Source of the DNA: a virus
Lineage: Duplodnaviria > Heunggongvirae > Uroviricota > Caudoviricetes
Virus record (IMG/VR): IMGVR_UViG_2541047969_000017
DNA: 40,450 bases
Reading direction: 5' to 3' (one strand)
Made by a program: the position numbers and the translations under genes. The notes under the pieces were generated by a model that worked only from the letters and a program-made list of their open reading frames with translations, had not been told where the DNA came from and did not search any database. How positions within the stretch are numbered: the first letter of the stretch is position 1; the number at the start of each line of letters is the position of its first letter. This document shows positions 28,750 to 40,450 of this stretch, piece after piece.

Positions 28750-31700
28750 ATGGGTAAAGGCAGCAGTAAGGGACATACCCCGCGCGAAGCAAAGGACAAT
28801 CTGAAGTCCACGCAGTTGCTGAGTGTGATCGATGCCATCAGCGAAGGGCCGATTGAAGGTCCGGTGGATGGATTAAAAAGCGTGCTGCTGAACAGTACGC
28901 CGGTGCTGGACAGTGAGGGGAATACCAACATCTCCGGTGTCACGGTGGTGTTCCGGGCAGGTGAGCAGGAACAGACACCGCCGGAGGGATTTGAATCCTC
29001 CGGATCCGAGACGGTGCTGGGTACGGAAGTGAAATACGACACGCCGATCACCCGGACCATCACGTCTGCAAACATCGACCGTCTGCGCTTTACCTTCGGT
29101 GTGCAGGCACTGGTGGAAACCACCTCAAAGGGGGACCGGAATCCGTCGGAAGTCCGCCTGCTGGTTCAGATACAGCGTAATGGTGGCTGGGTGACGGAAA
29201 AAGACATCACCATTAAGGGCAAAACCACCTCGCAGTATCTGGCCTCGGTGGTGGTGGATAACCTGCCGCCGCGCCCGTTTAATATCCGGATGCGCAGAAT
29301 GACGCCGGACAGCACCACAGACCAGCTGCAGAACAAAACGCTCTGGTCGTCATACACCGAAATCATCGATGTGAAACAGTGCTACCCGAACACGGCACTG
29401 GTCGGCGTGCAGGTGGATTCGGAGCAGTTCGGCAGCCAGCAGGTGAGTCGTAATTATCATCTTCGCGGGCGCATTCTGCAGGTGCCGTCGAACTATAACC
29501 CGCAGACGCGACAATACAGCGGTATCTGGGACGGAACGTTTAAGCCAGCATACAGCAACAACATGGCCTGGTGTCTGTGGGATATGCTGACCCATCCGCG
29601 CTACGGCATGGGGAAGCGTCTCGGTGCGGCGGATGTGGACAAATGGGCGCTGTATGTCATCGGCCAGAATTGCGACCAGTCGGTGCCGGATGGCTTTGGT
29701 GGCACGGAGCCGCGCATCACCTGTAATGCCTGGCTGACCACACAGCGCAAGGCGTGGGATGTGCTCAGTGATTTCTGCTCGGCGATGCGCTGTATGCCGG
29801 TATGGAACGGGCAGACGCTGACGTTCGTGCAGGACCGACCATCAGATAAGGTGTGGACCTATAACCGCAGTAATGTGGTGATGCCGGATGATGGCGCGCC
29901 GTTCCGCTACAGCTTCAGCGCCCTGAAGGACCGCCATAATGCCGTTGAGGTGAACTGGATTGACCCGAACAACGGCTGGGAGACGGCGACAGAGCTTGTT
30001 GAAGATACGCAGGCCATTGCCCGTTACGGTCGTAACGTCACGAAGATGGATGCCTTTGGCTGTACCAGCCGGGGGCAGGCGCACCGCGCCGGGCTGTGGC
30101 TGATTAAAACGGAACTGCTGGAAACGCAGACCGTGGACTTCAGCGTGGGTGCGGAAGGGCTTCGCCATGTACCGGGGGATGTCATTGAAATCTGTGATGA
30201 TGACTATGCGGGTATCAGCATCGGCGGGCGCGTGCTGGCGGTGAACAGCCAGACCCGGACGCTGACGCTCGACCGTGAAATCACGCTGCCATCCTCCGGT
30301 ACCACGCTGATAAGTCTGGTTGACGGAAGTGGCAATCCGGTCAGCGTGGAGGTTCAGTCCGTCACCGACGGCGTGAAGGTAAAAGTGAGCCGTGTTCCTG
30401 ACGGTGTTGCTGAATACAGCGTATGGGGGCTGAAGCTGCCGACGCTGCGCCAGCGCCTGTTCCGCTGCGTGAGTATCCGTGAGAACGACGACGGCACGTA
30501 TGCCATCACCGCCGTGCAGCATGTGCCGGAAAAAGAGGCCATCGTGGATAACGGGGCGCACTTTGACGGCGACCAGAGCGGCACGGTGAATGGTGTCACG
30601 CCGCCTGCGGTGCAGCACCTGACTGCCGAAGTCACCTCAGACAGCGGGGAGTATCAGGTGCTGGCGCGCTGGGATACGCCGAAGGTGGTGAAGGGGGTGA
30701 GCTTTATGCTTCGCCTGACCGTGGCAGCGGATGACGGCAGTGAGCGGCTGGTCAGCACGGCCAGGACGACGGAAACCACATACCGCTTCAGGCAACTGGC
30801 GCTGGGGCGTTACACGCTGACGGTCAGGGCGGTAAATGCGTGGGGACAGCAGGGCGATCCGGCATCGGTATCGTTCCGGATTGCCGCACCGGCAGCGCCG
30901 TCGCGGATTGAGCTGACGCCGGGCTATTTTCAGATAACTGCCACGCCGCATCTTGCGGTTTATGATCCGACGGTACAGTTTGAGTTCTGGTTCTCGGAAA
31001 AGCGGATTACCGATATCAGGCAGGTTGAGACCACAGCCCGCTATCTTGGTACGGCGCTGTACTGGATAGCTGCCAGTATCAATATCAAACCGGGCCATGA
31101 TTATTACTTTTATATCCGCAGTGTGAACACCGTTGGCAAATCGGCATTCGTGGAGGCTGTTGGTCAGCCGAGCGATGATGCGGAAGGTTACCTGGATTTT
31201 TTCAAAGGCCAGATAACCGAATCCCATCTCGGCAAGGAGCTGCTGGAAAAAGTCGAGCTGACGGAGGATAACGCCAGCAAACTGGAGGAGTTTTCGAAAG
31301 AGTGGAAGGACGCCAACGATAAATGGAATGCCATGTGGGGCGTCAAAATTGAGCAGACCGAAGACGGCAGGCATTATGTCGCGGGGCTTGGCCTTAGTAT
31401 GGAGGATACGGAGGAAGGCAAACTGAGCCAGTTCCTGGTTGCCGCTAACCGTATCGCGTTTATTGACCCGGCAAACGGGAATGAAACGCCGATGTTTGTG
31501 GCGCAGGGCAACCAGATATTCATGAACGAAGTGTTCCTGAAGTATCTGACGGCTCCCACCATTACCAGTGGCGGCAATCCTCCGGTATTTTCCCTGACAC
31601 CGGACGGGCGGCTGACGGCGAAAAATGCCGATATCAGCGGTAACGTGAATGCGAACTCCGGGACGCTCAATAATGTCACGATTAACGAGAACTGTCGGGT

Positions 31701-32145
31701 TCTGGGAAAACTGTCCGCGAACCAGATTGAAGGCGATCTCGTTAAAACAGTGGGCAAAGCTTTCCCCCGGGACTCCCGTGCACCGGAGCGGTGGCCATCA
31801 GGGACTATTACCGTCAGGGTTTATGACGATCAGTCGTTTGACCGGCAAATTGTTATTCCAGCGGTGGCTTTCTGCGGTGCCAGACATGAGCGGGAGAATA
31901 GCGATACTTATTCGTCATGCCGCCTGATAGTGAAGAAAAACGGGGCTGAAATTTATAACCGAACGGCTCTGGATAATACTCTGATTTACACGGGTGTTAT
32001 TGATATGCCTGCAGGCAGTGGTGTAATGACACTGGAGTTTTCTGTATCAGCATGGTGGGTAAATGGTTGGTATCCCACAGCAAGTATCAGCGATTTGCTG
32101 GTTGTTGTGATGAAGAAAGCCACTGCAGGCATCAGTATCAGCTGA
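28750..32145 (+). CDS. J: Tail tip / host specificity protein J
   Basis: 1131-aa track ORF; [45 protein letters not shown] is the lambda J N-terminus; size and position match. Confidence 0.95.
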
Positions 32146-32866: not shown

Positions 32867-32876
32867 TGGAGTGGAT

Positions 32877-34145
32877 ATGGCAGCAGTAAAAATCTCAGGT
32901 GTGCTGAAAGATGGTGCGGGAAAACCAATACAGAACTGCACTATTCAACTGAAGGCAAAGCGTAACAGCACCACGGTACTGGTGAACACGGTGGCCTCTG
33001 AAAATCCGGATGAAGCCGGGCGTTACAGCATGGATGTTGAGTATGGCCAGTACAGCGTCATCCTGCTGGTTGAAGGTTTTCCGCCTTCACATGCCGGGAC
33101 CATTACCGTCTATGAAGGCTCCAGACCAGGTACGCTGAATGATTTTCTCGGTGCCATGACGGAAGATGATGTCATGCCGGAGGCATTGCGTCGTTTTGAG
33201 GAAATGGTGGAAGAAGCGGCACGCAACGCTGAAGCCGCCTCTCAGAGCGCAGCGGCGGCAAAGAAATCCGAAACTGCAGCGGCATCATCGAAGAACGCGG
33301 CGAAAACCTCAGAAACGAATGCAGCTAATAGTGCACAGGCGGCAGCGACCTCACAGACTGCATCAGCAAACTCCGCGACAGCAGCCAAAAAATCAGAAAC
33401 CAACGCGAAAAATAGCGAGACAGCCGCAAAGACGAGCGAAACCAACGCAAAGTCCAGCCAGACGGCAGCGAAGACCAGCGAAACGAATGCTAAAGCCAGT
33501 GAAACTGCGGCAAAAAACAGCCAGGTTGCAGCAGCCCAAAGCGAGAGCGCGGCAGCCGGTTCTGCGACTTCAGCAGCTGGATCAGCAACTGCTGCGGCTA
33601 ACAGCCAGAAAGCTGCGAAGACGAGTGAAACTAACGCAAAGTCCAGCCAGACGGCAGCGAAGACCAGCGAAACGAATGCCAAAGCCAGTGAAACTGCGGC
33701 GAAAAGCAGTCAGGATGCAGCGGCCCAAAGCGAGAGTGCCGCAGCCAGTTCTGCAAGTGAGGCGGCGGCTTCTGCTACTGCATCAGCCAACAGTCAAAAA
33801 GCTGCAAAAACCAGTGAAACCAACGCAAAGGCGAGCGAGACTACGGCGGCCAACTCGGCGAAAGCATCCGCTGCAAGCCAGACCGCTGCAAAAGCAAGTG
33901 AAGACGCAGCCAGAGAGTATGCAAGCCAGGCAGCAGATCCGTATAAATATGTCTTACAGCCGCTGCCTGATGTGTGGATACCGTTTAACGATTCACTGGA
34001 TATGATTACGGGCTTTTCGCCATCATATAAAAAGATTGTTATTGGTGACGACGAAATAACGATGCCTGGCGACAAGATTGTTAAGTTTAAACGTGCATCG
34101 AAAGCAACCTATATTAACAAATCTGGTGTGCTGACAGAGGCTGCC
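32877..34145 (+). pseudogene. stf: Side tail fibre gene, N-terminal part, truncated by IS2
   Basis: ATG at residue 3 of track ORF 32871..34148; MAAVKISGVLKDGAGKPIQNCTIQLKAKRNSTTVLVNTVASENPDEAGRYSMDVEYGQYSV matches the lambda Stf N-terminus. The frame ends at TAG 34146-34148, which is the first three bases of the IS2 left end. Confidence 0.8.
33431..33765 (+). repeat. Direct in-frame duplication (~140 bp units, ~190 bp period) inside stf
   Basis: The segment encoding AKTSETNAKSSQTAAKTSETNAKASETAAK..AAAQSESAAA occurs twice (about 33431-33575 and 33621-33765) with only a few mismatches. Confidence 0.5.
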
Positions 34146-34236
34146 TAGACTGGCCCCCTGAATCTCCAGACAACCAATATCACTTAAATAAGTGATAGTC
34201 TTAATACTAGTTTTTAGACTAGTCATTGGAGAACAG

Positions 34237-34602
34237 ATGATTGATGTCTTAGGGCCGGAGAAACGCAGACGGCGTACTACACAGGAAAAGATCGCTATCG
34301 TTCAGCAGAGCTTTGAACCGGGAATGACGGTCTCCCTTGTTGCCCGGCAACATGGTGTGGCAGCCAGCCAGCTATTTCTCTGGCGTAAGCAATACCAGGA
34401 GGGAAGTCTTACTGCTGTGGCTGCCGGAGAACAGGTCGTTCCTGCCTCTGAACTTGCTGCCGCCATGAAGCAGATTAAAGAACTCCAGCGTCTGCTCGGC
34501 AAAAAAACGATGGAAAATGAACTCCTTAAAGAAGCCGTTGAATATGGGCGAGCAAAAAAGTGGATAGCGCACGCGCCCTTATTGCCCGGGGATGGGGAGT
34601 AA
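34237..34602 (+). CDS. insC: IS2 transposase OrfA (InsC)
   Basis: ATG at residue 16 of track ORF 34192..34602; [56 protein letters not shown] matches InsC as recalled. Confidence 0.9.
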
Positions 34603-35465
34603 GCTTCGTCAGCCGTTGTCTCCGGGTGTCGCGTGCGCAGTTGCACGTCATTCTCAGACGAGCCGATGACTGGAAGGACGGCCGCCGCAGCCGTCACACG
34701 GATGATACGGATGTGCTTCGCCGTATACACCATGTTATCGGAGAGCTACCCACATATGGTTATCGTCGGGTATGGGCGCTGCTTCGCAGACAAACAGAAC
34801 TTGATGGTATGCCTGCGATCAATGCCAAACGTGTTTACCGGATCATGCGCCAGAATGCGCTGTTGCTTGAGCGAAAACCCGCTGTACCGCCATCGAAACG
34901 GGCACATACCGGCAGAGTGGCTGTGAAAGAAAGTAATCAGCGATGGTGCTCTGACGGGTTTGAGTTCCGCTGTGATAACGGAGAAAAACTGCGGGTCACG
35001 TTCGCGCTGGACTGCTGTGACCGTGAGGCACTGCACTGGGCGGTCACAACGGGTGGCTTCGACAGTGAAACAGTACAGGACGTCATGCTGGGAGCAGTGG
35101 AACGCCGCTTTGGCAGCGAGCTTCCGGCGTCTCCAGTGGAGTGGCTGACGGATAATGGTTCATGCTACCGGGCGAATGAAACACGTCAGTTCGCCAGGAT
35201 GTTGGGACTTGAACCGAAGAACACGGCAGTGCGGAGTCCGGAGAGTAACGGAATAGCAGAGAGCTTCGTGAAAACGATAAAGCGTGACTACATAAGTATC
35301 ATGCCCAAACCAGACGGGTTAACGGCAGCAAAGAACCTTGCAGAGGCGTTCGAGCATTATAACGAATGGCATCCGCATAGTGCGCTGGGTTATCGCTCGC
35401 CACGGGAATATCTGCGGCAGTGGGCCAGTGATGGGTTAAGTGATAACAGGTGTCTGGAAATATAG
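34560..35465 (+). CDS. insD: IS2 transposase OrfB (InsD), DDE integrase-like
   Basis: Track ORF, 301 aa, beginning [30 protein letters not shown]; overlaps insC in the -1 frame. Confidence 0.9.
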
Positions 35466-35476
35466 GGGCAAATCCA

Positions 35477-36588
35477 CTGCCATTGATGAGCCTCGATTTG
35501 AACGTGATGGCCTGCTTATTGAGGGGAAAAGAACGAACTACATGCTCAATTCGGAAAACCCTGCCAGTTGGGGGCGATCGTCAAATATGGATGTTCCCGA
35601 AACCGGGACGGATAGTTTTGGTTTTACCTATGGAAAGTTTGTCTGTAACGATTCTCTGATTGGGCAAACCTCAGCCATTAATATGGCATCAATTGCTGCA
35701 ACAAAGTCAGTTGATGTCTCAGGCGATAATAAATACGTGACAACCTCATGTCGTTTTAAAACAGAACTGCAGGTAAGGTTGCGTATCCGATTTGATAAAT
35801 ATGACGGTAGCGCAACAACTTTTCTTGGTGATGCGTATATTGATACACAAACGCTTGAAATTAATATGACAGGCGGCGCTGCCTCAAGGATTACAGCGAG
35901 AGTCAGAAAGGACGAAGCTACCGGATGGATTTTTGCAGAGGCAACAATTCAGGCAATTGATGGGGAGTTAAAAATAGGTTCTCAGATACAGTATTCTCCT
36001 AAGCAGGGCGGGGCAACCGTATCTGGTGACTATATTTATCTGGCCACCCCACAAGTAGAAAATGGGCCTTGTGTATCATCTTTTATTATATCAGGAACGA
36101 CGGCGGCGACCCGCGCAAGCGATATAGTTACAGTTCCCATTAAGAATAATCTTTATAATCTTCCTTTTACGGTTCTTTGTGAGGTACATAAGAACTGGTA
36201 TAAAACGCCAAATGCAGCGCCGCGTGTTTTTGACACCGGCGGTCATCAAACCGGAGCGGCTATTATTCTTGGCTTCGGTTCTTCAGCAGATTACGACGGA
36301 TTTCCTTATTGCGATATTGGAGGAGCTAACAGACGGGTAAACGAAAACGCATTGCTTGAAAAAATGGTTATGGGGATGCGTGTAAAGTCAGATCAGTCTA
36401 CGTGCTCAGTAAGTAACGGGCGTATATCCAGCGAAACAAAAACCACATGGTCCTGTATTCAGAACACCGCAATTATCCGTATTGGAGGCCAGACTACAGC
36501 CGGGTTACGTCATTTATTTGGTCATGTCAGGAATTTCAGAATATGGCACAAGGCATTGACTGATGCTCAGGTGGGGGAGTCAATCTAA
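35477..36588 (+). pseudogene. stf: Side tail fibre gene, C-terminal part downstream of IS2
   Basis: Frame open from the IS2 right junction (track ORF 35440..36588 starts inside IS2). Removing IS2 plus one target-repeat copy (1336 bp) joins this frame in phase to the upstream stf frame (..KSGVLTEAA|IDEPRFERDGLLIEGKRTNYML..). Confidence 0.7.
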
Positions 36589-36869
36589 TGAAAGATTTAA
36601 CACTCAAATTTGCCGACAGGGCCGACTTTTCGGCCTTTATGGAGAGTATTGGCTATTATGATGACGAGTCGATGCAGGATGATATTCTTATTGACGTGAT
36701 AGGTAACGCGTACAAAGAAACCGGAGAACTGACTGAAGATGGCGAACCGGTATGTGTTAAGGACGACGGATATTTTGTAAACGTGCGCATCATTAATGAT
36801 GTGAAAACACCATCAATATTCGATGAATACGTGGTTGCTGTTGAGCATCAACTTCGTGGCTGGATGTGA
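36588..36869 (+). CDS. Hypothetical small acidic protein
   Basis: Track ORF, 93 aa; start overlaps the stop of the fibre fragment; no recognisable motif. Confidence 0.5.
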   Translation: MKDLTLKFADRADFSAFMESIGYYDDESMQDDILIDVIGNAYKETGELTEDGEPVCVKDDGYFVNVRIINDVKTPSIFDEYVVAVEHQLRGWM

Positions 36870-36878
36870 GGAAGAAAA

Positions 36879-37919
36879 ATGGCTACATCGACAGTAATTC
36901 CTGATGACATCAAAACGCTAAAATCCGACGTTAGCAAATTAAAAAACGATCAAGGAAGCTACGCAACAAAATCATATGTAGACAGCAAAGATGAAACCGT
37001 TGGTGACTGGTCTGCTTCATGGTATCAGCAGGTATTGCCAACTAGCGGAGCTATATTTGGGAGAAAACTCCGCTCAACTCACAGGACGGCAGGTGTTGAG
37101 GATGCGTATTGCGAACTATACCTCAAAAAATGGATAGACAGTCCAGGTAACGCAATGGCGCGCCTTAACCTGAACGATAACGGGACAAACATTTGCTGGG
37201 ACTTTACCAACCTTTATGGCGGTACGATGATTTTTCCCGGTGACAGCGGATACCTCAAAATGGGTAACTGCCTTATGTCATACAGCAAGCGTGGAAGTAA
37301 CGCGCTTATTAAATTTGATTACACCGACACATTACAGATCAAATATGCCAATCATGGGTCAACCATGACATTAAACACACAGGGAACCGCTCATTCTGGC
37401 GCTACTACTAGTTTGTGGGGTAACTCTACCCGTCCGGTTGTATATGAAGTTGGTGCTGATGGTGGCGCGTATATGTTCTATGCGCAGAAAAATACCGATA
37501 ACACCTATATGTTAAGCGTTAATGGTGCATGTCATGCCACCGCATTTAACCAGCATTCCGACCGGGATCTGAAAGACAACATTCAGGTGATCGATAATGC
37601 AACCGACCGCATCCGTAAAATGAACGGCTATACATACACGCTTAAAGAAAACGGTATGCCCTATGCTGGTGTCATTGCACAGGAAGCACTGGAAGCAATC
37701 CCAGAAGTTGTAGGTTCCGCAATGAAATATCAGGACGGTGCAGGCGGATCGGAAGGTGAAGAAGGTGAACGTTATTACACAGTAGATTATTCTGGTGTTA
37801 CTGGCTTGCTTGTTCAGGTAGCCAGAGAGTCAGACGACAGAATAACAGCACTGGAAGAAGAAAACGCAGAATTAAGACAAAGATTATCTGCAATTGAGGC
37901 GGCGCTTGCGTCTAAATAA
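36879..37919 (+). CDS. Tail fibre/spike-like protein with C-terminal intramolecular chaperone (peptidase S74-like) domain
   Basis: Track ORF, 346 aa, GAGGAAGAAAAATG start; C-terminal ..NQHSDRDLKDNIQVIDNATDRIRKMNGYTYTLKENGMPYAGVIAQEALEAIPEVV.. followed by a coiled coil resembles the self-cleaving chaperone domain of T5 L-shaped fibre and endosialidases (recalled). Confidence 0.7.
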   Translation: MATSTVIPDDIKTLKSDVSKLKNDQGSYATKSYVDSKDETVGDWSASWYQQVLPTSGAIFGRKLRSTHRTAGVEDAYCELYLKKWIDSPGNAMARLNLNDNGTNICWDFTNLYGGTMIFPGDSGYLKMGNCLMSYSKRGSNALIKFDYTDTLQIKYANHGSTMTLNTQGTAHSGATTSLWGNSTRPVVYEVGADGGAYMFYAQKNTDNTYMLSVNGACHATAFNQHSDRDLKDNIQVIDNATDRIRKMNGYTYTLKENGMPYAGVIAQEALEAIPEVVGSAMKYQDGAGGSEGEEGERYYTVDYSGVTGLLVQVARESDDRITALEEENAELRQRLSAIEAALASK

Positions 37920-37925
37920 TATTAA

Positions 37926-37948
37926 GGGGCCGAGCGCCCCGTTTTATT
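37926..37948 (+). terminator. Rho-independent terminator after the second fibre gene
   Basis: Stem ggggc / gcccc with loop cgagc, followed by GTTTTATT. Confidence 0.45.
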
Positions 37949-37955
37949 GGGTAGG

Positions 37956-38255
37956 ATGAAAATGGATATAACACCTTTCCTTCATGCGCTTTGTGCTGCG
38001 GCTGCGCAGCTATTGATTGGTCTTTTTACCGGGAACTGGGCTTACGGGGCGATAGCCGGTTGTACGTTCTTCATTGCGCGCGAACATACCCAGGCAGAAT
38101 ATCGCTGGATTGAAATGTTCGGGCATGGCAAGCGTATGAATATGCCGTGGTGGGGCGGTTTTGATCCTCGTGCATGGGATGTGGCAAGCCTGATGGATTT
38201 TTCTGTGCCGGTGGTGGCGTGTCTGCTGGTCTGGCTGTTGGTTAATCGTGGGTGA
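37956..38255 (+). CDS. Small hydrophobic membrane protein
   Basis: ATG at residue 4 of track ORF 37947..38255 with GGTAGG upstream; two or three predicted hydrophobic helices (LHALCAAAAQLLIGLF, VPVVACLLVWLLV). Confidence 0.5.
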   Translation: MKMDITPFLHALCAAAAQLLIGLFTGNWAYGAIAGCTFFIAREHTQAEYRWIEMFGHGKRMNMPWWGGFDPRAWDVASLMDFSVPVVACLLVWLLVNRG

Positions 38256-38558
38256 AAAAAGGTGAGCTGTATATGCAACGGAGGAAGAAACCTCGTTGCT
38301 GGAAGCCTGGAAGAAGTATCGGGTGTTGCTGAATCGCGTTGATACATCAGTAGCACCGGATACTGAGTGGCCGGAAGAACCAGACACAATGTAAGTGAAA
38401 AAGAAAAAACGCAGACACGACGTATGCAGGACGTGCTGCGGTTGGCTGGTGAACTTTCGATAGTGCGAGTATTGAATGATTTCCAGCCGTTACTGATTTT
38501 ACGCATTTCACGCGCAAGAGAAATTGAACTTTATCCCTCTGTCACCCCATGACGGGGA

Positions 38559-39317
38559 TTAACATTCTGGATTTTTTATTTCTAAATCAGATAAAGCATT
38601 AATTCTTATTTTTTCTAAGGCTTTATCCATGGCCCCCTTGATTCTGTATCCATAATCATCCGGTTCTTCATATTCCTGTGGGGACGGATTTGTACCAATA
38701 TTCTCAATCAATTCATTTAAAATAACTGTTACTTCTTTATTAAGAAGAACTGCTTTAGTTAACATCATCTCTGTTAATGCTGTGAAGGCTAGGCTAAGTT
38801 TCTGTTGTAGCTCTTTATTTTTTAATTTTAGATCTTCATCGTTTAGTGCTTTATCACGGTCTTCGTGAGCCTGTTGTACTTCATCCCAAAACTGCTTTTC
38901 TTGTTCTTGATTAAAATATCCTTGATAACTATTGGCTACATATGTTGGCATCATGTGAATCTCAATAATTTCAAATTCATTATCAGCCCATTTTTTTATA
39001 CTAAGTAACTGTGTGTAAATGTACTCATACATATCGTACTTTTTTTGCCAGATTTGTTGAGAAATCCACAACTCAGAAGTAATCTTTTTTTCTATATCTT
39101 TGATAGTTGTTGTATTTAATGCTAACTGCTTTCTGAGTATTTCATAGTTAGCGTTGGTAGCAGAAATTTTTGCTTTTTCAGTTATAAAAGAAACAATAAA
39201 GTTCACTATGAGAGCTACAATAATAATAGCGAAGCTCAACCCCAAAATCTCTGTGGTTGAGAAATTGGATGACTGTAATGCTTTGATAAGTTCAAAAAAC
39301 TGTTTTTCTGTGAGCAT
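38559..39317 (-). CDS. Hypothetical membrane-anchored protein (N-terminal transmembrane helix, coiled-coil-rich), AT-rich
   Basis: Minus-strand track ORF, 252 aa; one hydrophobic segment ILGLSFAIIIVALIVNFIVSFI near the N-terminus, then a charged Lys/Glu-rich region; composition clearly more AT-rich than the phage backbone. Confidence 0.6.
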   Translation of the reverse strand: MLTEKQFFELIKALQSSNFSTTEILGLSFAIIIVALIVNFIVSFITEKAKISATNANYEILRKQLALNTTTIKDIEKKITSELWISQQIWQKKYDMYEYIYTQLLSIKKWADNEFEIIEIHMMPTYVANSYQGYFNQEQEKQFWDEVQQAHEDRDKALNDEDLKLKNKELQQKLSLAFTALTEMMLTKAVLLNKEVTVILNELIENIGTNPSPQEYEEPDDYGYRIKGAMDKALEKIRINALSDLEIKNPEC

Positions 39318-39415: not shown

Positions 39416-40450
39416 TCAAGGAGGTGAGATTGTAGAGGCGTTACCTTGTTCTATCACACCAGACCTAATCTTGTAACTACCAAGGATGTTGACCGTTTTA
39501 TTATTTTTCATCGCGTCAAAAATTAAGCCTATTTCATCAGGGTCATTGATAAAACTGGTATCAACATAGATCGGGAATGAATCATCACCTGTTGGCTCAT
39601 GGCAGCTTAACGTTAGCTTATCGGCTGAGCGTTTTATACTATCAATGACAACTTCCAATGTTTGCTGCTCTGACTTAGCCTTTTCAATTGGGTTCTTGAT
39701 GATTTCTTGAACCTGACCTTGCGAAAGTTCAATATTGCTGGCCCCGCGGATCGTCACTTTGTCTGCATCAGATGCACCTTTAAGAACTCCAGTGTATGCC
39801 TTAGCGGTGTGCTCTTGGATACCTTCGGCGCGCTCTATCGTATCAATACCTTCATGTGCTTTTATTGCAGACAGCATACCATCGCGTAGAATTGTCATCC
39901 GCTCGGATTCTGCTCGCTGTTTTGCTTCTTCCTGTTGTAACTCAATAGTTTTGGTTTCGACTTGTGTCTGATGATCTAAGTAGGACGTACCGACCCATGC
40001 GCCGCCTAAAACTAAGACAGCAAACAGGAAACACATTGTTTTCTGTCTTGGGCTCATACCTTGTGTTACCTTCTCAAATGCGTTACCAAAGGAATCAATA
40101 AGTTCTTTAACTGAGGTGATAATTTCTGTACAGCCAGGTTTGATAGTAAAAACCAACTCTGCAGCTTCTCTATCCTCAGCAGTGAGCTTCTGTAAGTTAG
40201 AGGTTTTGTACTTGATTAGAGTAAAAACCTTGTACATCTCAGTTTGAAATTCACAAATACCCTGTGCCAAACCTGCAGGCAGAGTACCATTATACTTATC
40301 TTCATCACCAAAAAATTTGAAATCAATACTTTCTAAGAAGTTTAACTTCAAATTTTCAATGTGGATTTCTTCGCCTGAAATAACTCGGTCGAAAATATTT
40401 CCTATATCATCAATATCATTGATTTCATAGGTCTGAATTGCATCTTCCAT
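39416..40450 (-). CDS. Hypothetical membrane protein with one central transmembrane segment, AT-rich; start at or beyond the window edge
   Basis: Minus-strand track ORF, 344 aa, whose first codon is the last three bases of the window, so the true N-terminus may lie outside; central hydrophobic segment MCFLFAVLVLGGAWVGTSYL; no recognisable catalytic motif. Confidence 0.55.
   Translation of the reverse strand: MEDAIQTYEINDIDDIGNIFDRVISGEEIHIENLKLNFLESIDFKFFGDEDKYNGTLPAGLAQGICEFQTEMYKVFTLIKYKTSNLQKLTAEDREAAELVFTIKPGCTEIITSVKELIDSFGNAFEKVTQGMSPRQKTMCFLFAVLVLGGAWVGTSYLDHQTQVETKTIELQQEEAKQRAESERMTILRDGMLSAIKAHEGIDTIERAEGIQEHTAKAYTGVLKGASDADKVTIRGASNIELSQGQVQEIIKNPIEKAKSEQQTLEVVIDSIKRSADKLTLSCHEPTGDDSFPIYVDTSFINDPDEIGLIFDAMKNNKTVNILGSYKIRSGVIEQGNASTISPP

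Follow-up and report, generated by a model that had tools for sequence, protein, structure and literature searches.

The window analysed here (IMG/VR virus record IMGVR_UViG_2541047969_000017, Caudoviricetes; 40,450 nucleotides) contains at positions 36879..37919 of the plus strand an open reading frame with an ATG start, which encodes a tail-fibre protein of 346 residues with a predicted self-cleaving chaperone at its C-terminus. Taken jointly, the evidence makes it likely that this is a short homotrimeric lateral fibre protein, namely an exchangeable second receptor-binding subunit which cleaves itself, is mounted on the fibre protein Stf and in this prophage is displayed poorly or not at all. 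The upstream stf gene is interrupted by IS2, and this insertion probably orphans the 346-residue protein rather than promoting it.

Location and Annotation of the Gene

The open reading frame is preceded by a good ribosome-binding site (GAGGAAG, 7 nt 5' of the ATG). Directly 3' of the stop codon, inspection of the sequence revealed a terminator-like hairpin with a T-run (37926..37950, plus strand), GGGGCCGAGCGCCCC being followed by GTTTTATT at 37926..37940. Two minus-strand genes downstream of the open reading frame gave nothing significant with PADLOC or Pfam. The encoded protein is a common, already catalogued E. coli phage protein and is not new. It covers positions 1-346 of 346 of phrog_4563, annotated as "tail fiber protein" (PHROG profile match, E=2.8e-217). 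Since UTI89 carries 100% identical DNA, the protein is identical to the UTI89 product WP_001555784.1 ("tail fiber domain-containing protein"). Among 5426 complete E. coli genomes, 771 contain DNA that matches the gene. A literature search retrieved no experiment on the protein or a close homologue, and the literature on LF82/Gally, ECOR prophages and lambdoid Stf yielded no functional study of it.

The C-Terminal Peptidase_S74 Chaperone

Residues 227-346 (37557..37916, plus strand) were assigned as an intramolecular chaperone of the Peptidase_S74 family on the basis of PF13884, a Ser/Lys dyad and an alignment with gp37 of Salmonella phage S16. In the Pfam search residues 227-278 matched model positions 1-57 of 58 with E=6e-14 and 52.5 bits, the gathering score of the family being 22 bits. 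The motif HSDRDLKDNI occupies residues 226-235, with the codon of Ser227 at 37557-37559 and that of Lys232 at 37572-37574. Because the profile match starts there and lies well above the gathering score, this SDxxxK motif is not a chance occurrence. Both residues were invariant in an alignment of 54 homologues, none of which deviates, and they show the Ser/Lys+5 spacing of T5 pb1. Thus the earlier note, which had proposed a C-terminal intramolecular chaperone of ~110 residues with an SDxxxK motif, was borne out on both points, the length of the domain being 120 residues. The domain reaches the last residue (346) and hence occupies the extreme C-terminus of the fibre protein. In an AlphaFold2 monomer of the protein (pLDDT 67) the chaperone region 229-270 remained below 50. 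A long terminal helix was predicted for residues 304-344, with a block-mean pLDDT of 87-93 over the last ~25 residues. This helix fits a trimeric coiled coil, and weak bZIP/ZapB coiled-coil matches were obtained with Pfam at residues 317-340.

A characterised protein of the family is T5 pb1 (PDB 4UW7/4UW8), which likewise carries a C-terminal S74 chaperone of ~120-133 residues with Ser and Lys five apart at its start (PMC4690869). Its dyad is Ser1264/Lys1269, and the exchange S1264A blocks cleavage. The Ser departs with the chaperone and the receptor-binding tip is masked until cleavage, both of which we count as presumably shared with the 346-residue protein. Cleavage before the Ser was reported for T5 pb1 and for K1F, and an S74 domain works in cis on the polypeptide of which it is part (PMC4690869). 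Unlike the present protein with its anchorless mature part of 226 residues, T5 pb1 is a single chain of 1396 residues that carries a tail anchor and ends in a bullet-shaped tip, and no sequence match between the two was found beyond the family level. The K1F endosialidase endoNF, whose C-terminal chaperone (MEROPS/Pfam S74) is the founding member of the same Pfam family, differs by a large catalytic sialidase body that is absent here. Neither T5 pb1 nor endoNF was reached by sequence or profile searches of the PDB with the 346-residue protein; consequently, the dyad comparison with these two proteins relies on published work and on the Pfam model. The only solved structure that matched at the SDRxxK site and at the beginning of the chaperone was S16 gp37 (PDB 6F45), with SDRRIK aligned to this site; E was 0.0018 when a single sequence was used and 2e-7 with the profile. 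Unlike the present protein, S16 gp37 belongs to a T4-type long fibre which later receives the gp38 adhesin, and a gp38-like gene is absent here.

If the protein behaves like the characterised S74 proteins to which it is homologous, its last 120 residues would drive trimerisation and folding. After correct trimer formation Ser227, activated by Lys232, would cut the chain just before itself. Such a cleavage is expected to convert the 37.9-kDa precursor into a 13.1-kDa chaperone and a 24.8-kDa mature protein (residues 1-226) and to unmask the distal end of the latter.

The Mature Part of the Protein

For the part in front of the chaperone the earlier note had given a length of ~230 residues, close to the predicted 226, and had recognised no similarity. 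The latter statement holds for residues ~1-90, which are family-specific. Residues 92-342, however, match the distal ends of tail fibres of 1200-1570 residues (phrog_5668, phrog_6578), and residues ~170-225 resemble the T4 gp34 structures 4uxe, 5nxf and 5nxh (PDB profile search, E 1e-8 to 3e-8). A phage_tail_N (PF08400) tail-attachment domain, by which a Stf of the lambda type is recognised, was not detected in the protein with Pfam.

Residues 1-30 (36879..36968, plus strand) comprise the N-terminal adaptor motif MATSTVIPDDIKTLK and a short predicted coiled coil; the AlphaFold2 monomer contains a helix at residues 9-28. With conservation values of 0.91-0.97 this adaptor is strongly conserved whereas the body of the protein varies, and we propose it as the docking element. 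Variable cassette 1, a candidate specificity region recognised by allele comparison, corresponds to residues 31-125 (36969..37253, plus strand). Among otherwise near-identical genes its alleles show ~100%, ~52% or ~42% identity, and they assort independently of cassette 2. This second cassette (37374..37556, plus strand; residues 166-226) is the distal domain before the predicted cleavage site with the T4 gp34-like segment, and its alleles lie at 100/89/75/64% identity. W180, G181, R185 and E190 were invariant in the 54-sequence alignment. Such independent assortment of two variable cassettes resembles that of receptor-binding proteins, and the shuffled cassettes probably set the receptor specificity.

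A Three-Gene Fibre Module with an Exchangeable Slot

In every context examined the gene order was a fibre gene (neck and lectin-like head), a gene for a ~92-residue protein and a third gene, here called the slot gene. This order was found in lambda-like phages (UTI89, Tritos, PhiR47_1, PhiR49_1), in 9g-like Nonagvirus (JenP1, ESCO3), in T1-like phages (PeterMerian, contigs L006 and L008) and in T5-like phages (AKFV33, BUCT632, L009). Seven contexts of the module were retrieved via the 346-residue protein itself, and the slot gene was third in all of them. The tail anchor of the fibre differs among the phage groups, while the last ~430 residues are common to all. In the window the second gene (36588..36869, plus strand) encodes a 93-residue acidic protein (phrog_1361), which gene order and homologues mark as a companion of the fibre head. 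JenP1 and contigs of the T1-like and T5-like groups carry homologues with 39-54% identity. Wherever the sequence extends far enough, the ~92-residue protein gene lies directly 3' of the fibre gene, in loci with a filled and with an empty slot alike. An AlphaFold2 model of the 93-residue protein with 18 close homologues reached a pLDDT of 42.5 and was unusable.

Every slot protein begins with M-x-T-x-T-x-I-P-x-D-I-x-x-L-K, and none has a tail anchor. This motif heads otherwise unrelated proteins of 234, 326-351, 340 and 557-583 residues. Slots were filled with the 346-residue S74 protein, a 234-residue S74 protein, proteins of 557-583 residues (S74 was shown for the 583-residue one) or a 340-residue Gp34_trimer protein with a Tfa chaperone gene behind it; the slot may also be empty. 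The adaptor-bearing open reading frame begins 1.55-1.61 kb after the neck segment in 16 of the 16 phage records common to both searches. The present gene lies just 3' of the anchor-bearing fibre gene and is itself anchorless, and both its position and its shared N-terminus are those of a second fibre subunit. As far as sequence comparison goes, it is exchangeable cargo of a conserved lateral-fibre module. Because the slot proteins share their N-terminus and have no tail anchor, the 346-residue protein most likely mounts on Stf; being anchorless and always encoded by the third gene of the module, it most likely also needs Stf to reach the virion.

The modules of AKFV33 (orf137-136-135), BUCT632, the BASEL phage PeterMerian (bas05_0031-0029), JenP1 and ESCO3 have the same three-gene order, neck, head, ~92-residue protein and adaptor as the present one. 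They differ from it in the tail anchor of the first protein and the body of the third (234 to 583 residues), and no functional data were found for them. A comparable dependence has been described for LtfA-LtfB of DT57C and DT571/2, which are also encoded by tandem fibre genes and of which the second protein is also anchorless (PMC4728585, PMC10713586). In DT57C, LtfB adds host specificity and, as shown genetically, gets to the virion only via LtfA; autocleavage is predicted in this system as well (PMC4728585, PMC10713586). Homology between the two systems was considered and rejected. LtfB starts with MSRPLMPKSGAMAPYVV (MSRPLMPKSG...), the best BLASTP value was E=0.85, and no significant BLASTP similarity was found to the N-terminal 45 residues of LtfB, which represent the adaptor type of DT57C LtfB and phiEco32 gp15. 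LtfA shares only the Ala-rich shaft with Stf and has neither neck nor lectin head, and no ~92-residue protein gene lies between LtfA and LtfB. The DT57C pair is thus an analogue and not a homologue of Stf and the 346-residue protein.

Interruption of stf by IS2 and the Intact gpJ Gene

The 5' fragment of stf (32871..34148 or 32877..34148, plus strand) corresponds to phrog_1419 positions 1-422 and encodes the tail anchor (phage_tail_N, PF08400, E=1.9e-67), the Ala-rich shaft and the neck. It ends with ...SGVLTEAA at a TAG contributed by IS2. The 1331-bp element, with its transposase genes on the plus strand, occupies 34146..35476; its ends were read, and TnpA and TnpB were identified with NCBIfam (4e-83 and 6e-210). 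It is flanked by a 5-bp target-site duplication CTGCC (left 34141..34145, right 35477..35481). The 3' fragment (35482..36588, plus strand; phrog_1419 positions 421-793) encodes the head-spike-fibre-like part and the lectin-like head (GTA_spike_fiber in NCBIfam, E=9e-14; a weak Laminin_G_3 match in Pfam) and is severed from the start codon and anchor. It is 100% identical to the residues of UTI89 Stf beyond the break. In UTI89 and phage Tritos the same stf is unbroken, so that WP_001555784.1, unlike the protein studied here, stands behind an intact stf. The IS2 assignment, the CTGCC repeat and the intact open reading frame of the 346-residue protein confirm the earlier reading of a broken stf with an intact S74-protein gene beside it. 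The exact stf::IS2 junction was absent from the 5426 complete E. coli genomes and from the GTDB species representatives. In ~12 genomes an IS2 or IS3-family element was found in the homologous stf region, at a different position in all three cases that could be checked.

The gene of the central tail fibre and host specificity protein gpJ (28750..32145, plus strand) is intact and encodes 1131 residues, the length of UTI89 gpJ. In lambda-type phages gpJ is the primary specificity protein (10.1101/2022.09.30.509847). The separate Tfa (Caudo_TAP) gene of a lambda-type Stf/Tfa pair is represented downstream only by a 39-codon remnant of the Tfa C-terminus (38275..38394). The suggestion in the earlier note that the 346-residue protein may be the functional host-range determinant was overstated, since the protein is anchorless, its gene is the third of the module in every context examined and gpJ is intact. 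Probably gpJ is the remaining operative specificity determinant and the lateral-fibre apparatus of this prophage is crippled.

The Fibre Neck as Candidate Docking Site

No stretch of the C-terminal ~430 residues of the fibre is more strongly conserved across the phage groups than the neck. In the window this segment, PLPDVWIPFNDSL...LTEAA, is located at 33960..34145 (plus strand) and is kept upstream of IS2; by its conservation it is a candidate socket for the adaptor. It includes the signature DEITMPGDKIVKFKR (34050..34094, plus strand). All filled slots that were seen pair with a neck of the I-T-x-P type, and the slot was always empty behind necks of the VVQVASDKQV type. The phage AKFV33 has an intermediate neck, DVITMPSDKVVSFSR, and a filled slot. 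A strict one-to-one rule, by which a DEIT-type neck means a filled slot (57/57 vs 24/24), was rejected because Lambda_2E9 combines a DEITMPGDK neck with an empty slot. The rule that survives, that a filled slot is accompanied by a neck of the I-T-x-P type, seems to hold for the sequences compared, with few independent lineages behind this association. Instead of the neck, the ~92-residue protein could be the real connector.

Proposed Role and Alternative Explanations

In the likely reading given at the outset, the adaptor would plug into Stf, probably at the neck between shaft and lectin-like head, and a branched fibre would result, as suggested by the gene context in 4-5 siphovirus groups. 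In this prophage IS2 cuts stf after codon 422 and the carrier fibre is truncated. Transcription of the 346-residue protein gene as part of the late operon probably continues, but the gene product is most likely not or only poorly displayed.

A wider model, to which we give only tentative credence, is a plug-and-socket system shared by lambda-like, T1-like, T5-like, 9g-like and Dhillon-type siphoviruses. An N-terminal adaptor of ~15-30 residues would dock unrelated receptor-binding proteins, whose folding is assisted in cis by an S74 chaperone or in trans by Tfa, on the neck PLPDVWIPFNDSL...I-T-x-P of a lectin-headed lateral fibre, and the present phage would carry a head-less but socket-bearing stump and could have the S74 protein as its sole lateral adhesin. 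This arrangement has apparently not been recognised as a system before.

It is rather unlikely that the 346-residue protein is still mounted as a working lateral receptor-binding protein, either on truncated Stf(1-422) or at another tail site. The gene is intact and has a good ribosome-binding site, and in lambda Q antitermination acts on the late operon, which means that IS2 polarity need not silence the genes downstream. Moreover, the candidate docking segment 33960..34145 lies entirely upstream of IS2 together with anchor and shaft. Because the signature at 34050..34094 is thus retained, the candidate socket survives on Stf(1-422), which might still carry the protein, and its Ala-rich shaft could form a trimer unaided. 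Against this, trimerisation of fibre proteins would in general depend on their C-terminal part or on a chaperone, and Stf(1-422) stops 17 residues past the signature and would be uncapped. A naturally head-less fibre with a slot protein was found in 0 of >200 loci examined, and the docking site is itself a deduction.

We consider it very improbable that the protein is a trans-acting assembly chaperone of the lateral fibre instead of a receptor-binding protein. Homologues in PeterMerian, VogelGryff, ESCO3 and JK16 are labelled "putative lateral tail fiber chaperone" or "endosialidase chaperone", and the 234-residue variant would leave a mature part of only ~115 residues, most of it predicted to be coiled coil. 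These labels, however, reflect the Pfam name "Chaperone of endosialidase", and S74 domains act in cis (PMC4690869). The fibre head with its ~92-residue partner occurs without a slot gene in many phages and therefore needs none, the slot can also be occupied by a Gp34_trimer fibre that has a Tfa chaperone gene of its own, and the body of the protein shows cassette shuffling like receptor-binding proteins.

The S74 domain was first described in endosialidases, and the annotation in JenP1 reads "endosialidase-like", but a capsule- or O-antigen-degrading tailspike is hardly credible, as no catalytic glycosidase or lyase domain was detected with Pfam, NCBIfam or PDB searches and the 226-residue mature part matches fibre segments and not beta-helix or beta-propeller depolymerases.

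Implications

The identification itself is routine annotation, the protein being identical in UTI89 and closely related variants occurring in hundreds of E. coli genomes. Several phage records call homologues "tail fibre chaperone" or "endosialidase chaperone"; by the present evidence they are exchangeable fibre subunits. If adaptor and neck are a true docking pair, they would offer a natural cross-family handle for swaps of receptor-binding proteins in the host-range engineering of siphoviruses.

Gene, relatives and chaperone domain

The 346-aa tail fibre protein is encoded by an uninterrupted open reading frame with an ATG start (36879..37919, + strand), with GAGGAAG 7 nt 5' of the ATG and a GC-rich hairpin with a T-run directly 3' of the stop codon (37926..37940, +). 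In UTI89, NU14 and other strains the DNA of the gene is 100% identical and annotated as WP_001555784.1, 'tail fiber domain-containing protein'. A match to the gene was found in 771 of 5426 complete E. coli genomes, with at least 80% of the gene covered in 512. Copies of the protein that are 97-98% identical occur in the phages Tritos, 2G7b, PhiR63_1 and HannyBb, phrog_4563 ('tail fiber protein') matched it from end to end (E=2.8e-217), and some relatives carry the name 'pyocin knob domain-containing S74 family peptidase'. This is a catalogued protein, so its novelty is low. Several prophage copies are shortened (L005 7001..7885; L051; L017; P0018, P0024-P0029), with open reading frames of 294, 299 and 323 aa and forms of 254 aa, a length in keeping with initiation at Met93; this points to frequent gene decay or wrongly annotated start codons in lysogens.

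An earlier note had proposed a self-cleaving type of chaperone domain at the C-terminus with a critical Ser/Lys dyad in HSDRDLKDNI. Pfam Peptidase_S74 matched residues 227-278 with model positions 1-57 of 58 (E=6e-14; 52.5 bits, gathering score 22). The motif occupies residues 226-235, with the codons of Ser227 at 37557-37559 and Lys232 at 37572-37574 (+). Both residues are invariant in an alignment of 54 homologues of 37-96% identity, as are W180, G181, R185 and E190 just upstream. The Ser-to-Lys+5 spacing is the same as in T5 pb1 (Ser1264/Lys1269), where the mutation S1264A prevents cleavage, the mature fibre lacks the Ser and adsorption is blocked by the cleaved protein only (PMC4690869). 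Of the solved structures, S16 gp37 (6f45) alone was reached by sequence at the dyad site; its SSDRRIKKDI aligned with HSDRDLKDNI. The model of the 346-aa protein contains a long terminal helix (304-344; block-mean pLDDT 87-93 for the final ~25 residues), in agreement with published descriptions of a central coiled coil in S74 chaperones. Thus, domain and dyad had been recognized correctly; the sizes were slightly off, with 120 instead of ~110 residues for the chaperone and 226 instead of ~230 for the N-terminal part. We infer autocleavage of the protein, by which the 37.9-kDa precursor would be split into a mature part of 24.8 kDa and a free chaperone of 13.1 kDa (computed masses).

Mature part

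The N-terminal domain had been described as lacking recognizable similarity, which does not hold from residue 92 onward and leaves it only partly unrecognized. Similarity to the distal ends of 1200-1570-aa fibres (phrog_5668, phrog_6578) extends over residues 92-342, and a T4 gp34 segment (4uxe, 5nxf, 5nxh; E 1e-8 to 3e-8) matched residues ~170-225 (WGN..R..VYEVG..FYAQKN.D..VNG). The comparison of 42 distinct alleles of 340-352 aa over five regions revealed conservation of residues 1-30, 126-165 and 227-346. Compared with the window allele, three types exist for residues 31-125 (~100, ~52 and ~42% identity) and four for residues 166-226 (100, ~89, ~75 and ~64%). The two cassettes combine freely, as in locus L014 with 100/42/92/100/98 across the five regions. 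Such shuffling is typical of receptor-binding proteins and hard to reconcile with a role as a mere assembly chaperone.

A three-gene module in several phage groups

In UTI89 and Tritos the gene order is gpJ (central fibre), (lom), an intact side tail fibre gene stf (790 aa), a 93-aa gene, the 346-aa gene and a 97-aa membrane-protein gene. The trio of fibre gene, ~92-aa gene and 346-aa-type gene was also found in Nonagvirus JenP1 and ESCO3, in T1-like PeterMerian and the metagenomic contigs L006 and L008, where it adjoins primase and ERF genes, and in T5-like AKFV33, BUCT632 and L009, where it lies between collar protein and dUTPase. These phages outside the lambda-like prophages are virulent and unrelated. 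The last ~430 fibre residues, from LQPLPDVWIPFNDSLDMITGF, are common to the phage groups at no less than 56-61% identity, and the tail-anchor ends differ (37-39% identity for Nonagvirus, no match for T1-like phages). This C-terminal part matched the NCBIfam 'head spike fiber' domain (9e-14) and, weakly, a concanavalin-like lectin. Therefore, the fibre itself probably possesses a binding head.

The 93-aa acidic protein (phrog_1361; 36588..36869, +) is encoded directly 3' of the fibre gene. In every sufficiently long locus from five phage groups, a ~92-aa gene follows the fibre gene within a few bases, whether the next position, here called the slot, is filled or not. AlphaFold gave a pLDDT of 42 for the 93-aa protein; candidate roles are chaperone of the lectin-like head or connector. 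The 97-aa hydrophobic, probably membrane-spanning protein (MDITPFLHALCAAAAQLLIGLFTGNWAYGAIAGC..., phrog_1443; 37962..38255, +) is encoded after the slot in all lambda-like loci, filled or empty, and is missing in the virulent phages. PADLOC gave no hit for it. Given the position of its gene after the terminator-like hairpin, it is possibly a moron expressed in lysogens, with superinfection exclusion as one conceivable role. A 39-codon remnant of a Tfa C-terminus (38275..38394, +; with ...EWPEEP), which is a pseudogene in the UTI89 annotation, seems to be left over from an earlier stf-tfa arrangement, since replaced by the present fibre-head module. At the prophage end two hypothetical genes of 252 and 344 aa (38559..39317 and 39416..40450, - strand), both found in UTI89, had no significant match in Pfam or PADLOC and are possibly cargo.

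Slot occupants and their common adaptor

The slot was screened in >200 loci, with open reading frames extracted by script. It holds the S74-bearing 346-aa protein in the window, UTI89 and Tritos, a 234-aa protein with its own S74 domain (E=3e-5) in L029, PhiR49_1 and PeterMerian, 557-583-aa proteins in L079, AKFV33 and BUCT632 (S74 at 5e-12, from the scan of L079), and in L054 a 340-aa protein with Gp34_trimer followed by a Tfa chaperone gene with Caudo_TAP. In L055-L078, ev243 and Lambda_2E9 it is empty and the 97-aa membrane-protein gene comes next. All occupants start with M-x-T-x-T-x-I-P-x-D-I-x-x-L-K (e.g. MATSTVIPDDIKTLK, MVTKTIIPTDITTLK, MATVTTIPADITNLK, MTTVTNIPADITNLK, MTTYTNIPQDITKLK), which we call the adaptor. 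A search with the first 35 residues retrieved 59 phage records, all from E. coli or Shigella phages; those checked were lambda-like, 9g-like and T1-like. The fibre neck, the segment between shaft and head, was present in 215 records, and in each of the 16 records seen with both searches the adaptor reading frame starts 1.55-1.61 kb past it. No tail-anchor domain was found in any slot occupant. A conserved N-terminus, interchangeable bodies and a constant fibre neighbour are the pattern expected of a subunit docking on the fibre.

The 'mini' slot protein of 231-234 aa (L029 6398..7102; L090 4501..5196; L091 4501..5205) combines the same adaptor with ~70 residues of heptad repeats and an S74 domain of its own, with a predicted remainder after cleavage of only ~115 residues. 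In the BASEL phage PeterMerian it is annotated as 'putative lateral tail fiber chaperone'.

The neck (PLPDVW...EPRFE, UTI89 Stf ~364-435) is the best-conserved part of the fibre across groups (0.87-0.97 versus 0.6-0.8 for the head). Its 15-residue signature occurs as type one (DEITMPGDKIVKFKR; DEITMPGDK[IV]VKFKR, with variants DEITWP.., DEITVP.. and DVITMPS...) and type two (NVVQVASDKQVNFSR; [ND]VVQVASDKQV[NS]FSR). The filled slots examined all go with a type-one neck (57 loci of the first set plus ESCO3, PeterMerian, PhiR49_1, BUCT632 and AKFV33), including L079 with type-two flanks around a type-one signature. With a type-two neck the slot was empty in 24 of 24 loci of the first set and in ev243, and unreadable in 4A7, where a mobile element follows stf. 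A strict rule that a type-one neck means a filled slot was rejected: Lambda_2E9 has DEITMPGDK and an empty slot. Because of this exception, and because the loci are far from phylogenetically independent, the neck is regarded here as no more than a candidate socket.

Proposed mechanism and precedents

The 346-aa protein would be the branch or distal subunit of the fibre, a trimer that its own S74 chaperone folds and then releases, and the adaptor would mount it on the Stf neck. The fibre would thereby bear two binding modules, the lectin-like Stf head and the 346-aa protein. The closest functional precedent is DT57C LtfA/LtfB, a pair non-homologous to that of the window, in which LtfB has no tail anchor and the phenotypes of ltfA amber and ltfB opal mutants support its presence on the virion via LtfA (PMC4728585; PMC10713586). 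An internal stretch of DT57C LtfA (L226, 73748..73897) is 63% identical to the first 45 residues of the AKFV33 type of slot protein (..TNIP.DIT.LK...NNNLSDLADRAAAWLN); this junction thus seems to occur in two forms, within a single chain and divided between two genes. In the papers searched we found no description of such an adaptor shared by several siphovirus groups, together with its likely socket on a lectin-headed fibre. The BASEL papers go no further than noting that lateral fibres may be built from one or several proteins and that their far N-terminus is conserved (PMC8594841), and the RBPseg atlas contains a class with N-terminal coiled coil and C-terminal S74 domain (PMC12143355).

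Interruption of stf by IS2

In the window stf is broken by IS2, as the earlier note had stated. The 1331-bp element (34146..35476) starts with TAGACTGG at 34146, ends with AAATCCA at 35476, encodes TnpA (34192..34602; NCBIfam 4e-83) and TnpB (34560..35465; 6e-210) and is flanked by the direct repeat CTGCC (34141-45 and 35477-81). The stf pieces correspond to positions 1-422 (5') and 421-793 (3') of phrog_1419, and the first IS2 triplet provides the TAG stop of the 5' piece, whose product ends ...SGVLTEAA. In about a dozen complete E. coli genomes (H41-H51) the homologous stf region harbours IS2 or an IS3-family element, at a position differing from that of the window in 3 of 3 checkable genomes. 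The exact stf::IS2 junction was found in none of 5426 E. coli genomes. The stf gene may be a recurrent IS target.

The 346-aa protein had been proposed as the surviving host-range determinant. This is unsupported and should probably be reversed, with the proposed carrier Stf truncated at codon 422 and gpJ intact (28750..32145); in lambda gpJ mediates the irreversible, specificity-defining binding and Stf merely aids adsorption (10.1101/2022.09.30.509847). The neck segment (33960..34145, signature 34050..34094, +) lies just upstream of IS2 and is therefore retained on the truncated fibre, so that a shaft-plus-neck stump might still display the 346-aa protein; we consider this unlikely for a stump that would be headless and has probably lost its ability to fold. 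As its carrier would lack the head and probably be unable to fold, the 346-aa protein of this prophage has most likely been orphaned by IS2.
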